Of a stretch of 51,993 bases of DNA, positions 32,809-45,409 are shown piece by piece. Made by a program: the position numbers and the translations under genes. The notes beneath the pieces are model-generated. The model searched no databases, was not told the origin of the DNA, and saw only the letters and a list, made by a program, of their open reading frames with translations. Source of the stretch: a virus. Taxonomy: Duplodnaviria; Heunggongvirae; Uroviricota; Caudoviricetes. Positions within the stretch are counted from its first letter, which is position 1. Each line of letters opens with the position of its first letter. Location: the IMG/VR virus record IMGVR_UViG_2850796239_000012, one strand, 5' to 3'.

Positions 32809-33279
32809 CTACCCCCCAAGGCATTGGATCCTGATGTACTCCTGAAGCATTCTCAATGCTGTCTGGTCGCTGATGATTCCGTCCCGGATACCGAGAACGT
32901 TTCGTCCAGCAACTGGAGAGAGTTCGACGGTGGCATCATTGCCCATGCCGGAGGCGCTGGAGGTTTCGGCTGAGGATGGCACAGGGCATTTTCCTTTGAC
33001 GAGCACCCAACCACCATTATCAAGCTTGCGACGAAGAGCATCATTTTCAGCTTTCGCATTGGCTAACTCCTTCGTGTATTTAGCATCGAGTGCATCAGCA
33101 GCACGCTGGCGCTGCTGCATGTCAGTAATGGTTGCGTTCGCCAGCTTCAGTTCTCTTGCGTTTTTGTCGCGCTGCTCTTTGTAGGTAATGGCGTTATCAC
33201 GGTAATGATTAACAGCCCATGACAGGCAGACGATGATGCAGATAACCAGAGCGGAGATAATCGCGGTGACTCTGCTCAT
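32809..33279 (-). CDS. i-spanin (Rz)
   Basis: N-terminal TM segment followed by a coiled-coil periplasmic domain; immediately after the endolysin stop. Confidence 0.7.
32853..33059 (-). CDS. o-spanin lipoprotein (Rz1), embedded in Rz
   Basis: 68-aa ORF in the +1 frame inside Rz with lipobox …LIMVVGCSS… and a Pro-rich mature region. Confidence 0.7.
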
Positions 33280-33773
33280 TGCTGCCCCCACAAACAGACT
33301 TCACGCTCAATCTCACGACGGGTCATCAGCCCTTTCCATTGCTTACCGCCAGCATATGTCCAGCGACGTAGCTGGTCACATGCGCCTTTGATATCGCCCT
33401 GGTTTATTTTGCGAAGAAGCGTCGATGTTCTGAAATTGCCAGCGCCCACGTTGTAAACGAACGAGTAAAGAGCGCCGCGCGTTGTTTCCGGTATATCGAC
33501 TTTGATGTACGGGTTAATTTGTCTGGCGACAGTGGCAAGGTCTTTATTCAGGAGAGCTTTGCATTCTGCTTCGGTATACGTTTTACCAGGCATGATGTCT
33601 TTTCCGGTGTGTCCGTGACATACAGTCCATACACCAATGATATCTTTGTATGGTATGTAGCTGACACCTTCCAGACCATCGTTACCACCTGGGCCAGTGA
33701 TTAACACAGATGCTATAGCAACAGCCCCGCCACCAATAGCAACTGCAACAGCCTTGCGTAATGATGGCGACAT
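33276..33773 (-). CDS. SAR endolysin (phage 21 R21-type lysozyme)
   Basis: 165 aa with N-terminal signal-anchor-release segment [20 protein letters not shown] and T4-lysozyme-like catalytic region; near-identical to recalled R21. Confidence 0.85.
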
Positions 33774-33988
33774 TATTCACCTCTCGCAGCCTTACGCTTA
33801 TCTTCTCTTATTTTGAAATACAGATTCGTCAGATAAGTCAGAAGCCCCAGAAGCAGACTTCCCAGCACACCAATCGCAGCCCACTGTGATGGACTGACCT
33901 GATCCAACCACTGCAAAAACCAGTAGCCGGCACTGCCGGCGGAGGTGCCGTAGGCAATGCCTGTTGATATTTTTTCCATCTGATACAT
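33773..33988 (-). CDS. Pinholin (phage 21 S21-type), dual-start motif
   Basis: 71 aa, [27 protein letters not shown]… with two TM segments; Met1 and Met4 mirror the S21 antiholin/holin dual start. Confidence 0.85.
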
Positions 33989-34017
33989 ATCCCGCCCCCC
34001 GACAGACCTGTGCTATC

Positions 34018-34055
34018 GGAAAGAAAAAAGGCCATCAGCAAAACTCTGATGGCCT
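34018..34055 (-). terminator. Intrinsic terminator upstream of the lysis genes (late strand)
   Basis: On the minus strand: AGGCCATCAG-AGTTTTG-CTGATGGCCT (10-bp stem) followed by TTTTTTCTTTCC. Confidence 0.5.
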
Positions 34056-34099
34056 GAATCACCTTTACCAATATTGTATGAAAAAACACGCACGTCTAA

Positions 34100-34230
34100 T
34101 TGACAATAATTTTCATTTCCATTAAAAAAGATCGCGTAGCATTCTTAATTCATGAGGAACTTTACCCGCCAGCAATCTGAGTAGCGAAAGCTGTTCATCC
34201 CCAATGTTTTTGCTGGCGGGTCCTTTTTTC
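34100..34230 (+). ncRNA. Candidate small RNA gene (promoter + strong intrinsic terminator, no ORF)
   Basis: TTGACA (34100-34105), 17-bp spacer, TAAAAA (34123-34128); perfect 12-bp stem ACCCGCCAGCAA / TTGCTGGCGGGT (34164-34175 / 34210-34221) followed by CCTTTTTTC; the longest ORF in between is 10 codons. Confidence 0.35.
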
Positions 34231-34667
34231 TACGGTCCTCCTCCCCGGAGGGGGCATTTCATTATTTTTCTAATCATTACTGGTGAGAAGGCGGAAGAAA
34301 AAGCCAGTTCTTCGCCCCTAAATAACAGCATGATTCCAGTCCATGCAAAATCTGATTTCCAGCTCACACATACCGAGCACTGTACAAAAAACCGCCAGCC
34401 AAGGCAGTTAAGAGTGTGTTCCCGGGGTTTGCTTAGAATATTTTGTAAGTTGTCCGAAGAGATATTTACAACACCAGAATGATGCATTATCAGTCCCCTG
34501 CCAGAGGTTCACTACGTAACCTGACCGACAATGCACCATTCTGGTGCTGAAAAAAGAGCACTGGAACTGCAACAAAACAACATCACAGAACAGGAGATGG
34601 TAAGGAGTCAGACATTCCCACACAATATTGTGTCAGTGCAAATAACAACCTTCGTCTCAAATCTCGC

Positions 34668-34742
<75 letters not shown>

Positions 34743-34745
34743 ATA

Positions 34746-34821
<76 letters not shown>

Positions 34822-34823
34822 GC

Positions 34824-34900
34824 TGGCCCACCACCGAGGACTCGAACCTCGCACCGTCAACTTAGAAGGTTGATGCTCTATCCGGATGAGCTAGTGGTGG
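34824..34900 (-). tRNA. tRNA-Arg (anticodon UCU)
   Basis: Acceptor stem CCACCAC/GTGGTGG (unusual C1-G72), anticodon stem TCAAC/GTTGA with loop CUUCUAA, T-arm CGAGGTTCGAGTCCTCG, CCA encoded. Confidence 0.7.
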
Positions 34901-34901
34901 T

Positions 34902-34978
34902 TGGTGGCCCTTGCTGGACTTGAACCAGCGACCTGGCGATTATGAGTCGCTCGCTCTGACCAACTGAGCTAAAGGGCC
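34902..34978 (-). tRNA. tRNA with CAU anticodon, body resembling minor tRNA-Ile (ileX/ileZ type)
   Basis: GGCCCTT acceptor stem, anticodon loop CUCAUAA, T-arm GCTGGTTCAAGTCCAGC, CCA encoded; Ile(LAU) versus Met cannot be settled from sequence alone. Confidence 0.7.
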
Positions 34979-35167: not shown

Positions 35168-35722
35168 TCAAAAAGCAATAACTTTTTTCTCTATACCAAA
35201 AGCCATAACCATTGGTTTGTACAAAATAAATTCTGCCACCTTTAGCCAATGCTCAATGCGTCTTTCACAGGTTCTTAAACTCCATTTCGGGTGTGCATCA
35301 TTCAGCAGTTCAGCCATTTTGCGTTTGGTCATCCCCCGCCCCTCATACCGTTGCCGAAGGACGCTAATCAATCCTGGATGCTCTGCCAGCACCTCACTTA
35401 TGACCCGATCAATACATAACGCCTCTGCATCAGTACAATGCGCCAGCCAGCTCTTTTGCTTACCGTTAATCATATCCCGCAAAAAAGCCTCAAGTTCAGA
35501 CTTGTTCAGACCTGCTTTTTTCATCCTCCGGAGCGCCTCGTTAATTGCCGTTTTTGTCAGCTTTTTAGAGGTCAACATCAGGTTAAACATATTCCCCGTC
35601 TTACCGCCACCAATATACGACCAGCGCCCCCACATACGTAGTTTTCCCTGAATCCAGACACTTTCCAGCGTGGTGAGACGAAGGTGTTCTCCGCTTTTTC
35701 CTGTATTCGTTGGGTAAATCAT
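35168..35722 (-). CDS. Putative late-gene antiterminator (Q-like), assigned by position
   Basis: 184 aa from the internal Met with SD GGAGGG; ATGA overlap with the ybcO-like stop; followed by a terminator, tRNAs and the lysis cassette. Not recognised by sequence. Confidence 0.4.
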   Translation of the reverse strand: MIYPTNTGKSGEHLRLTTLESVWIQGKLRMWGRWSYIGGGKTGNMFNLMLTSKKLTKTAINEALRRMKKAGLNKSELEAFLRDMINGKQKSWLAHCTDAEALCIDRVISEVLAEHPGLISVLRQRYEGRGMTKRKMAELLNDAHPKWSLRTCERRIEHWLKVAEFILYKPMVMAFGIEKKVIAF

Positions 35723-36009
35723 AAATATCCCTCCTTTCTCCAGATTTCTTGTGTGCGAAAAACACCTTCTGCATGCATCAGGCGTAATTCTTCTTTGGTG
35801 TAATCGCTGGTTTTTACCCGCCCGTCGATTAAATCGTGGCACGAGCTACAGGCAATCGCTGCCTGCATATCGTGTGGCTTTATCGCTGTTCCGCACGTTC
35901 CCGCCAGTCGGTAATGCGCCAGCACAGACGTTTCCGGATCGTGATTGCAGTAGCCAGGAATTCTGACGGTGCACATCTGCCCCCGCGCCGCTTTAAGTAA
36001 ATCCACCAT
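35719..36009 (-). CDS. YbcO-like Cys-rich protein (DUF1364, putative nuclease)
   Basis: 96 aa with …RIPGYCNHDPETSVLAHYRL…CGTAIKP…ACSSCHD… resembling E. coli DLP12 YbcO as recalled; nin-region position. Confidence 0.65.
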   Translation of the reverse strand: MVDLLKAARGQMCTVRIPGYCNHDPETSVLAHYRLAGTCGTAIKPHDMQAAIACSSCHDLIDGRVKTSDYTKEELRLMHAEGVFRTQEIWRKEGYL

Positions 36010-36489: not shown

Positions 36490-37395
36490 CTATATTTCCA
36501 GACATCTGTTATCACTTAACCCATTACAAGCCCGCTGCCGCAGATATTCCCGTGGCGAGCGATAACCCAGCGCACTATGCGGATGCCATTCGTTATAATG
36601 CTCGAACGCCTCTGCAAGGTTCTTTGCTGCCGTTAACCCGTCTGGTTTGGGCATGATACTGATGTAGTCACGCTTTATCGTTTTCACGAAGCTCTCTGCT
36701 ATTCCGTTACTCTCCGGACTCCGCACCGCCGTGTTCTTCGGTTCAAGTCCCAACATCCGGGCGAACTGGCGTGTTTCATTAGCCCGGTAGCATGAACCAT
36801 TATCCGTCAGCCACTCCACTGGAGACGACGGAAGATCGTTGCCGAAGCGGCGTTCCACCGCTCCCAGCATGACGTCCTGTACTGTTTCACTGTTGAAGCC
36901 GCCGGTAGTCACCGCCCAGTGCAGTGCCTCACGATCACAGCAGTCCAGCGCGAACGTGACACGCAGTCTCTCTCCGTTATCACAGCAGAACTCGAACCCG
37001 TCAGAGCACCATCGCTGATTGCTTTCTTTCACGGCCACTCTGCCTGTATGTGCCCGTTTCGATGGCGGTACAGCAGGTTTTCGCTCAAGCAACAGCGCAT
37101 TCTGGCGCATGATCCGGTAAACACGTTTGGCATTGATCGCAGGCATACCATCAAGTTCTGCCTGTCTGCGAAGCAGCGCCCATACCCGACGATAACCATA
37201 CGTGGGCAGCTCTCCGATAACATGGTGTATACGGAGAAGCACATCCGTATCATCAGTGTGACGACTGCGGCGGCCATCCATCCAGTCATCGGTTCGTCTG
37301 AGAATGACGTGCAACTGCGCACGCGACACCCGGAGACAACGGCTGACTAAGCTTACTCCCCATCCCCGGGCAATAAGGGCGCGTGCGCTATCCAC
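36490..37395 (-). CDS. insD: IS2 OrfB (InsD transposase catalytic part)
   Basis: 301-aa DDE-type ORF overlapping orfA, typical IS3-family arrangement. Confidence 0.85.
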
Positions 37396-37718
37396 TTTTT
37401 TGCCCGTCCATATTCAACGGCTTCTTTGAGGAGTTCATTTTCCATCGTTTTCTTGCCGAGCAGGCGCTGGAGTTCTTTAATCTGCTTCATGGCGGCAGCA
37501 AGTTCAGAGGCAGGAACAACCTGTTCTCCGGCGGCCACAGCAGTAAGACTTCCTTCCTGGTATTGCTTACGCCAGAGAAATAACTGGCTGGCTGCTACAC
37601 CATGTTGCCGGGCAACGAGGGAGACCGTCATCCCCGGTTCAAAGCTCTGCTGAACAATTGCGATCTTTTCCTGTGTGGTACGCCGTCTGCGTTTCTCCGG
37701 CCCTAAGACATCAATCAT
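37353..37718 (-). CDS. insC: IS2 OrfA (InsC)
   Basis: 121 aa from [26 protein letters not shown]… (internal Met of the listed ORF). Confidence 0.85.
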
Positions 37719-37982
37719 CTGTACTCCAATGACTAGTCTAAAAACTAGTATTAAGACTATCACTTATTTAAGTGATACTGGTTGTCTGGAGATTCAGGGG
37801 GCCAGTCTAGTAGTTACGCACACGCTTAAAGTCTGCGTGTATCCACTCACCTATTTTGATTTGATGCAGAAAATCGCAACTCTCCGGCGTCGCCGGGAGA
37901 AGTAATCCGGAAGAGGTTTGTTTGACCAGTTGTATATGTGCCATCGGCTTTCTCCGGTGGCACGGTGTTACACAGCAGGAGT

Positions 37983-38519: not shown

Positions 38520-38675
38520 TTACTTCCTGGATTCGTAGTCTACGAAGACAGCGACCTCCGTCTGGCCGGTTCGGATTCGTACCTCACAGAGGTCTTTCCT
38601 CGTTACCAGTGCCGTCACTATGACGGTTAAACAGATGACGATCAGGGCGATTAACATCGCCTTTTGCTGCTTCAT
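38520..38675 (-). CDS. hok: Hok/Gef-family type I toxin (HokD/RelF-like)
   Basis: 51 aa MKQQKAMLIALIVICLTVIVTALVTRKDLCEVRIRTGQTEVAVF…, very close to recalled HokD/Gef; an in-frame upstream extension (to 38732) is mok-like. Confidence 0.85.
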   Translation of the reverse strand: MKQQKAMLIALIVICLTVIVTALVTRKDLCEVRIRTGQTEVAVFVDYESRK

Positions 38676-38902
38676 AGCCTGCTTCTCCTTGCCTTTCGGC
38701 ATGTAAGAGGCTAACCTACATGTGCAAAGCATGAAATTGGCCTCAGATTAATGTTAAGCGTCTTGCCGGACGCGTAATGTTAACTGGGGCTTTTCTCTAT
38801 CTGCCTTTTGGTGTTCATGCCTGAAGCAGATAGCCTCAAGCACCCGCAGTCATTCTACTTACCTCGCCAATATGAAATCAATCAGAAAGGTGCCCCATAA
38901 AA

Positions 38903-44560: not shown

Positions 44561-45409
44561 ATGTTGAATGTAGCTATTGAAAACCAGAACGGGTGGAATT
44601 ATAGTGCACCTGCACCTCATAAAACGGGTGCCGGGATTGCTACCCCGACGATGACTACTGCGCATAACCGCGCTCAGGCGGTTTTTTTATGCGTCAAGCA
44701 CAGCCACATTCAGATTATGGTGGGGCGTGCAGGGCAGCCGCAAGGCTGGCCGGTTTCGGTAGTCACCGGTTGTAGCAACCCTGTGCGTCTCACCACCCAT
44801 GAGATTGCTACCTCTGGTGGTGAGTTATTTAAACTGACTATCGAGGCTGCCATCATGGCTACTATCCTTACCCTTTCTCACCCTGACGTAACCATCGAAA
44901 ATGGTCGCGCTGTCACTACGTCTGTTGCGGTTGCGGAGTTCTTCCGGAAAATGCACAAAAACGTTATTCAGAAGATCGAAACTCTCGAATGCTCGCCGGA
45001 GTTTAACCGGCTTAATTTTAAGCCCGTCACCTATACCGACGCCAAAGGCGAAAAACGCCCAATGTACCAAATCACCAAAAACGGCTTCGTTTTCCTGGTG
45101 ATGGGCTTCACTGGCAAAAAAGCCGCCGCATTCAAGGAAGCCTACATTGCTGAGTTCGACCGCATGGAGGCCGAACTGCGCCAGAATAACACCCCACCTG
45201 CTGACAAGATGATTCCGGGTGATGGTCGCACTCTGGTTGTTCACTTCGACAAATTCGGCAATGTCGAATTCACCGAAACCGTTCCTGATGGCGCACTGGT
45301 CTGTACCCTGGAGACTTTCCGGTTTTATCTGGAAAAACAGGGATGGACTCTTGTTAACCGGGGCGCAATTAAAAATATGACTGTGGAACAATTACTTTCT
45401 TTAAAATAA
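44561..45409 (+). CDS. Rha-family phage regulatory protein (antirepressor-like)
   Basis: C-terminal 184 aa (from Met at 44855) carry the Rha-type region …TSVAVAEFFRKMHKNVIQKIE…FNRLNF…MYQITKNGFVFLVMGFTGKKAAAFKEAYIAEFD…; the upstream 98 codons are in frame with a good SD at 44561 and may be an extension or a separate small ORF. Confidence 0.6.
   Translation: MLNVAIENQNGWNYSAPAPHKTGAGIATPTMTTAHNRAQAVFLCVKHSHIQIMVGRAGQPQGWPVSVVTGCSNPVRLTTHEIATSGGELFKLTIEAAIMATILTLSHPDVTIENGRAVTTSVAVAEFFRKMHKNVIQKIETLECSPEFNRLNFKPVTYTDAKGEKRPMYQITKNGFVFLVMGFTGKKAAAFKEAYIAEFDRMEAELRQNNTPPADKMIPGDGRTLVVHFDKFGNVEFTETVPDGALVCTLETFRFYLEKQGWTLVNRGAIKNMTVEQLLSLK

Follow-up and report, generated by a model that had tools for sequence, protein, structure and literature searches.

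A candidate small RNA gene antisense to the late operon of a lambdoid prophage, in the slot before the holin

The late regions of prophages in pathogenic E. coli are a nursery of Hfq-dependent small RNAs (sRNAs) that rewire host regulation, among them AgvB, AsxR, StxS, HnrS and PasA-D. To our knowledge, the characterised examples all come from EHEC or EPEC. Does the lambdoid prophage analysed here, a stretch of 51,993 nucleotides that we call the window, carry a further gene of this kind, and if so, which of the known sRNAs does it resemble?

The late genes of this prophage lie on the minus strand and include a Q-region gene (35168-35842), four tRNAs (34668-34978), a class II holin (33773-33988), an RrrD-type lysozyme (33276-33773) and a spanin (32809-33291). 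The first-pass annotation of this DNA, made from its letters, had pointed to a candidate sRNA on the opposite strand, in a gap of ~600 bp between the tRNA cluster and the holin, and had likened this place to the slot in which Stx phages carry their toxin genes. The unit indeed sits between the end of the tRNA-Gly gene and the holin, in a gap that measures 679 bp and not ~600; it is on the plus strand, against the holin and the tRNAs, and in Sakai Sp5 the stx2AB genes fill the equivalent place after the tRNAs. As a whole, the proposal of an sRNA that runs against the late operon and occupies the moron slot ahead of the holin was supported on every point that could be tested computationally.

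The tRNA at 34902-34978 (minus strand) is called Met (anticodon CAT) by ARAGORN and tRNA-Ile by RefSeq; ileZ of Stx phages offers an analogy, and the tRNA probably decodes as Ile once it carries the lysidine modification. Upstream of Q, the DUF1367 gene is interrupted by an IS3-family element (36490-37763, minus strand; orfA of 136 aa and orfB of 301 aa) that is missing from the otherwise identical region of strain FDAARGOS_944.

A promoter-like element and a long-looped hairpin

Read directly from the plus strand, the unit opens with a −35 hexamer, TTGACA (34100-34105), followed by a 17-nt spacer, ATAATTTTCATTTCCAT (34106-34122), and a −10-like hexamer, TAAAAA (34123-34128). When compared with the sigma-70 consensus (TTGACA, a spacer of 16-18 nt, TATAAT), the −35 matches in six of six positions, and the candidate −10 in four of six, without the T at position 6 (−7). 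The description of this element as a near-consensus promoter therefore stands for the −35 and the spacer but is overstated for the −10, and a promoter scan of the region did not call it. Promoter-like sites occur in this region at chance density (4 found by the scan versus 3.0 expected). The TTGACA hexamer is unchanged in all 27 distinct copies of the conserved module that surrounds the unit (see below), as well as in PasA, PasC, EcOnc32 and a unit in Sakai Sp5. The string TTAAAAAAG also stands ahead of the northern-validated EcOnc33 unit, while TAAAAA recurs in the Sp5 unit and appears as TAAAAG in a copy from a UPEC island (L008).

The likely start of the RNA can be placed by comparison with PasA and PasC, two sRNAs validated in EPEC E2348/69 by northern blot, RNA-seq and RIL-seq (Pearl Mizrahi et al. 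2021, PMC8550237). The published ends are 743499 to 743415 for PasA (85 nt) and 1290909 to 1290832 for PasC (79 nt), and both 5' ends fall exactly 30 nt past the last base of their TTGACA. Promoters with an atypical −10 are therefore active at these loci and start where expected. By the same rule the candidate RNA would start at ~34135 and, with its 3' end in the U run, would be ~95 nt long (34135-34229, plus strand).

The RNA at 34135-34230 (plus strand) has a predicted fold energy of −30.9 kcal/mol (z = −3.6). Its 5' domain (34135-34163) is predicted to be largely unpaired, and this mostly single-stranded stretch, which is variable between copies, is a possible seed region. The remainder forms a hairpin (34164-34221) that was found both by fold prediction and by an inverted-repeat search. 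The outer stem, which begins 35 nt past TAAAAA, pairs 34164-34175 (ACCCGCCAGCAA) with 34210-34221 (TTGCTGGCGGGT) over 12 bp with 100% complementarity, leaving 34 nt between the arms. Within these, fold prediction places an inner helix of 8 bp (34178-34185 with 34190-34197) closed by a GAAA loop (34186-34189), and a C-rich bulge of 12 nt, UCCCCAAUGUUU (34198-34209). The hairpin is followed by a CC spacer and a U6 tail (CCUUUUUUC, 34222-34230; T6 at 34224-34229, read directly), which is presumed to be the point of termination and the site for the proximal face of Hfq. This T6 run is unchanged in every one of the 27 distinct copies.

Both the perfect GC-rich stem and the U6 run reported downstream of the promoter in the first-pass annotation were thus read at their positions, and the features of an intrinsic terminator are all present: a 12-bp GC-rich stem, a 2-nt spacer and U6 on the transcribed strand. 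Only five inverted repeats of at least 11 nt within 60 nt occur in the entire 52-kb window, the candidate stem being one of them. A terminator scan missed this hairpin because it permits loops of 3-8 nt, and the "loop" here spans 34 nt. The terminators of the validated relatives carry equally long loops, so that the odd hairpin of the candidate is typical of the class. Directly after the terminator lies a G/C-rich palindrome, CCTCCTCCCCGGAGGGGG (34237-34254), whose G-run varies from 4 to 6 G among copies; this tract is therefore slippage-prone.

Comparison with known prophage sRNAs

In many Sakai prophages, the moron region that follows Q has been noted to contain convergent sRNA genes (Tree et al. 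2014, PMC4104026). PasA and PasC, named as "pathogenicity associated" sRNAs, have many trans partners in RIL-seq (PMC8550237), and the EHEC homologues of PasA are EcOnc51 and EcOnc52. The genes pasA, pasC and pasD1 directly adjoin the holin/lysozyme operon (Zhu, Shabalina and Storz 2026 preprint, 10.64898/2026.05.13.724894). Like PasA and PasC, the candidate is located in a lambdoid late region beside the holin-lysozyme operon and is oriented against the late genes, and a late-direction terminator separates it from the holin. It also has in common with them the TTGACA, the 17-nt spacing and an A-rich −10 that lacks T at −7, as well as an RNA, predicted here, of ~80-95 nt with a long-looped GC-rich hairpin, GCCAGC in the 5' arm and a U run of at least 5. 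In PasA the GCCAGC arm is the proposed seed (10.64898/2026.05.13.724894).

The same order of elements was found, antisense to the late genes, at the PasA, PasC and EcOnc32 loci: a late-direction terminator by the holin, TTGACA, ~17 nt, an A-rich −10, the RNA body, a hairpin with GCCAGC in its 5' arm, and a T run. In our locus coordinates these units span L005 3916-4035 (PasA), L006 3333-3445 (PasC) and L012 2581-2707 (Sakai Sp3), the last of which coincides with the Hfq peak EcOnc32 (901574-901662, minus strand). At these three loci and at a fourth (L010), the antisense position between the Q/moron genes and the holin is the same as in the candidate.

This likeness lies in the layout and not in the body of the RNA. 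We could not find any BLAST-level similarity of the candidate to PasA, PasC or EcOnc32, and blastn with a word size of 7 against L005, L006 and L010 returned no similarity except at the start of the holin. The candidate hairpin is also larger than those of PasA and PasC, with its 12-bp outer stem, 8-bp inner helix and C-rich bulge. Whereas PasA and PasC are found in LEE-positive strains, the candidate occurs mainly in ExPEC/APEC plasmids, cryptic prophages and Shigella. The blastn survey in the 2026 preprint reported only 12 plasmid matches, compared with 574 plasmids that carry the candidate here; the candidate would have escaped that survey.

Two further sRNAs of this kind were detected in EHEC by Hfq CRAC and northern blot: EcOnc32 from Sakai Sp3 (~112 nt) and EcOnc33 from Sakai Sp6 (~71 nt) (PMC4104026, Table S2). 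EcOnc32 resembles the candidate in its promoter start, TTGACAATAAT, and its GCCAGC stem, and EcOnc33 in the −10 string noted above; both occupy the antisense slot between Q and the holin, and both end in long-looped terminators with U runs. Their bodies are unrelated in sequence to that of the candidate, neither has a described function, and EcOnc33 lies directly after the nanS-p esterase gene and not beside the holin.

Very close to the candidate in promoter and stem is the unit in Sakai Sp5, an Stx2 phage, which together with a relative from IMG/VR has TTGACAAT..TTTTCATTAAAAA and a CCGCCAGC stem in common with it. This unit (L004 7588-7702, minus strand) is flanked by an IS629 insertion and ECs_1210 and precedes the lysis genes. 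The Hfq peaks published for Sakai (PMC4104026) do not include it, perhaps because annotated CDSs lie within 100 bp of it. Another unit of promoter and GCCAGC hairpin was seen directly downstream of PasA in E2348/69 PP2 (L005 3768-3867, minus strand). The terminator of this second unit falls at the minor 3' end published for PasA (743264, giving a 236-nt form), and the unit may be a separate, additional sRNA gene.

The availability of these units allowed the layout to be searched for as a covariance model. The model (R1) was trained on PasA, the unit downstream of PasA, PasC, EcOnc32 and the Sp5 unit, with no copy of the candidate. On both strands of the 52-kb window, with filters off, its best match was the candidate itself, at full length (34100-34230, plus strand; 29.5 bits), with an E-value of ~0.0014 that is of the order of 1e-3 under a rough calibration. 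The first-pass annotation had named such a search as a check, and the model recovered the unit as the top match of the window. The copies in the other three lineages scored 30-39 bits. Over 343 kb from 70 holin loci (both strands), R1 returned four matches at E < 0.1, all of them antisense and upstream of the holin: three copies of the candidate and one new Sp5-like unit. As a positive control, EcOnc33 (Sakai Sp6), which was outside the training set, scored 28.1 bits, assuming that the +142 coordinate shift seen at Sp5 also holds for Sp6. In the mixed alignment, which was fitted to the model, 95% of stem cells were paired and five pairs were changed on both sides. Among the candidate's own lineages the stem is nearly invariant, so there is no covariation to back it. 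Used as a covariance model, the promoter-to-terminator layout offers a practical finder for genes that BLAST surveys miss.

None of the identities we considered fits the candidate. Searches against Rfam 15 returned no family for the plus-strand unit, either over the whole window at the gathering score or over 33950-34700 with E up to 10; within the gap there were only weak matches to generic sRNA and terminator models on the minus strand and miRNA-like ones to a nearby hairpin. Elsewhere in the window, Rfam matches at the gathering score were isrK directly followed by a C4 antisense RNA (44612-44800, plus strand), a sok antitoxin (38670-38845, minus strand; hokD is annotated in the matching genome) and a RalA antitoxin (49416-49594, minus strand). 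AgvB and AsxR, which are Hfq-bound sponges of core sRNAs, resemble the candidate in occupying a prophage moron slot downstream of Q (AsxR being antisense to stx2AB) and in combining a conserved 3' with a variable 5' domain. However, they are only 51-60 nt long (RF02702/RF02703), their conserved 3' region of ~42 nt (GTATCTCATGC..GCCCGAACCCA.TCGGGC) differs from that of the candidate, as do the sequences in the 2014 supplement (PMC4104026), and the candidate matched neither RF02702 nor RF02703. HnrS (EcOnc10-12) is likewise a multicopy sRNA of prophage late regions with an intrinsic terminator, associated with Hfq, and regulates the host gene hha (Poudyal et al. 2026, PMC13502914); it is 66 nt long, lies in a different place, downstream of the lysis cassette (after Rz), and is unlike the candidate in sequence. 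PapR of UPEC was considered because one copy of the unit sits 2 kb from papI, and its ends, as derived from the PapR primers, differ. PasB and PasD lie in different places or on the other strand. In the DLP12 region of K-12, nmpC is antisense to essD; the candidate is not a remnant of the nmpC/lc porin promoter or IpeX from this region, as neither BLAST nor R1 gave a match. A literature search by sequence strings and for sRNAs of ColV plasmids found nothing relevant. The unit is thus outside the PasA/PasC family in the narrow BLAST sense and outside any Rfam family. Its layout suggests that it probably belongs to the known class of Hfq-type sRNAs antisense to prophage late regions, as a member that has no name as yet.

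Distribution and conservation of the unit

A search of 5,426 complete E. coli genomes detected the 141-nt unit in 1,427 (~26%), at 89-100% identity and with 642 of its places on plasmids, and it is conserved in ~1,500 records. In PLSDB it is carried by 574 plasmids, mostly conjugative, including 21 from Klebsiella, 17 from Salmonella and 5 from Shigella. None of the deposited phage genomes that we searched carries the unit; prophage contigs in IMG/VR do.

The unit is part of a conserved mosaic module of ~370 bp (34003-34375), of which we aligned 27 distinct copies. These fall into four lineages with different neighbours to the left and right. In the lineage of the window the module lies between the tRNAs and the holin, and a second lineage is of the DLP12-like prophage type. 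The third is found on ColV-type plasmids, beside iss and a truncated Rz, and the fourth on a UPEC island, near pap, between IS fragments and ~2 kb from papI; the holin is absent from both. One plasmid copy (pEND_Eco 18006, L007 5004-5134) travels with iss (bor-like) and truncated Rz/Rz1.

Variation among the four lineages is unevenly spread over the module. Variable columns number 6 of 66 in the hairpin and T run (34164-34229), 5 of 29 in the promoter, 14 of 35 in the 5' body (34129-34163) and 32 of 66 in the 66 nt just downstream. No part of the module is better conserved than the 3' hairpin: compared with the remainder (100 of 304 columns variable), the difference is significant (Fisher p = 4e-5), in a sample of few lineages (four) and with high copy numbers that stem from clonal spread. 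The same 3' fold is predicted in the other three lineages. A conserved 3' domain next to a variable 5' domain is the pattern of a transcription unit, and is suggestive without being proof of selection. The whole module, including stretches with no assigned role, is 85-90% conserved, so hitch-hiking is possible. The slot itself is highly mosaic, as a strict GCCAGC pattern searched upstream of 77 related holins had no match outside the lineages of the candidate; the sequences upstream of this holin family form 18 different clusters among the 77 loci where enough of them is available.

The left part of the module contains a late-direction intrinsic terminator with a 10-bp stem and a U run (34019-34055, minus strand), ~40 nt upstream of the holin start. 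Analogous hairpins adjoin the holin at the PasA, PasC and EcOnc32 loci. This hairpin probably stops Q-independent read-through into the lysis genes. We also considered it, at 34055-34029, as the end of a separate minus-strand sRNA; the sole decent −10 for such an RNA (TACAAT) has no usable −35 and is absent from the L002 lineage, and the hairpin is better read as a read-through stop before the holin. In the copies from ColV-type plasmids and the UPEC island (PAI), disruptive changes break the stem of this terminator, and the plus-strand hairpin of the candidate is intact or has a single mismatch (A-C in the outer stem of the ColV-plasmid copy) and still folds.

Just outside the module, a second terminator-like hairpin in the late direction (34390-34409, minus strand) is followed by TTTTT and contains CCGCCAGC; it may be a relic of another unit. 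Further on, between the module and tRNA-Gly, there is an imperfect inverted repeat with arms of ~30 bp (34463-34555), which gave only weak matches to miRNA-precursor-like Rfam models (at most 33.6 bits, where the gathering score is 70). The repeat is to the right of the module, which ends at ~34375, and in this place the L002, plasmid and island lineages have unrelated sequence.

Possible roles and alternative explanations

Could the unit encode a peptide instead? The longest ORF wholly between promoter and terminator has 10 codons, as the first-pass annotation had noted. This ORF (MRNFTRQQSE, ATG at 34152) is open in all four lineages, which would suit a micropeptide, but it has no Shine-Dalgarno sequence upstream, half of it lies within the terminator stem, and five of the six differences among lineages are non-synonymous; we regard a peptide product as so improbable that it can be set aside. 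The list of ORFs also included one of 26 codons (34100-34180) whose TTG start is in the −35 box and one of 92 codons (34204-34482) beginning within the terminator, neither of which is kept in the L002 lineage. A "hypothetical protein" of 63 codons annotated in one relative is broken in the window. No ORF on either strand is conserved between lineages: indels break the frames, and changes in the length of a nearby G-run shift every one of them.

We favour, with modest confidence and on the strength of its layout and conservation, a free-standing sRNA gene carried by the prophage or its remnant. The unit might instead be a non-functional relic of mosaic recombination, conserved through recent ancestry and hitch-hiking with the holin or iss. 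Such a relic would fit the small number of lineages at 85-90% identity, copy counts that come from clonal plasmids and cryptic prophages, the chance density of promoter-like sites, the mosaic region upstream of the holin and the deposited phage genomes that lack the unit. It does not account for the uneven variation, in which conservation is significantly higher in the hairpin and T run than in their flanks, with the promoter next, nor for the recovery of the unit by a model of validated sRNAs at full length and with the right spacing, with essentially no other matches in 343 kb; we therefore think it unlikely that the unit is a relic. An RNA that works in cis and nowhere else, as a safety device for lysis and not as a trans-acting regulator, is a rather unlikely alternative in our estimate. 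Here convergent transcription or pairing with the leader would dampen read-through into the holin in lysogens, or would trigger cleavage of the late mRNA. Indeed, the leader of the late transcript is exactly complementary to the predicted RNA at 150-240 nt ahead of the holin start, the late-direction terminator between unit and holin suits an insulating module, and the loci of PasA, PasC and EcOnc32 combine these two elements as well. Yet the RNA does not overlap the translation start of the holin, PasA and PasC have their many trans partners, and the unit with its hairpin has been kept on ColV-type plasmids and the UPEC island where holin and late operon are gone, which argues that an effect in cis on holin read-through is not its sole role.

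The hairpin could also act on the other strand, as an element for processing or stability of the late mRNA, or in the DNA as a protein-binding palindrome, with the TTGACA being incidental. The minus strand does fold the 12-bp stem (z = −3.2), and the hairpin lies within the late transcript. However, the inner GAAA helix is predicted only on the plus strand, it is only there that the hairpin has the conserved T6 on its 3' side (no T run follows it on the minus strand), TTGACA is invariant at a fixed distance in all copies and in the related validated sRNAs, and the unit is retained where no late transcript exists. These points make an other-strand or DNA-level role improbable.

For the free-standing sRNA gene that we prefer, the following course of events can be proposed. 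Sigma-70 RNA polymerase would start at ~34135 from the perfect −35 and the weak −10, and transcription would run away from the holin, against the late operon, to end at the hairpin and U6 (34224-34229), giving an RNA of ~95 nt. By analogy with PasA, PasC, EcOnc32 and EcOnc33, this RNA would be made in the lysogen, be bound by Hfq through the U-tail of its terminator, and act by base pairing with host or prophage mRNAs or with other sRNAs. The seed may be the variable 5' domain, the conserved C-rich bulge and GCCAGC arm, or both. Pairing in cis with the late mRNA after induction is also possible, given the exact complementarity of the RNA to the late leader. In the translation start regions of the window, duplex prediction for the candidate was no better than for shuffled controls. 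Exact complementarity within the window amounted to two 12-mers and two 11-mers, about the number expected by chance; both 11-mers, when checked, lay inside ORFs.

The unit is unsurprising in kind, but it is widespread and unannotated: it has no name, Rfam family or annotation, yet about one complete E. coli genome in four carries it. On hundreds of conjugative plasmids of the ColV type, now also found with the unit in Klebsiella and Salmonella (PLSDB), it adjoins iss, a serum-resistance gene, and it occurs in a UPEC island. A bolder reading, which we put forward tentatively and consider doubtful, is that of an sRNA gene that has outlived its phage, captured with a bor/iss lysis remnant onto ColV-type plasmids and onto UPEC islands beside pap, and serving as a riboregulator of ExPEC virulence or as a sponge of core sRNAs. 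If this were true, the unit would be to ExPEC what PasA, AgvB or HnrS are to LEE-positive strains. If expressed, the candidate would add an ExPEC/APEC, plasmid-borne member to the class, and would provide a ready-made test of whether such sRNAs persist for the benefit of the host after the death of the phage.
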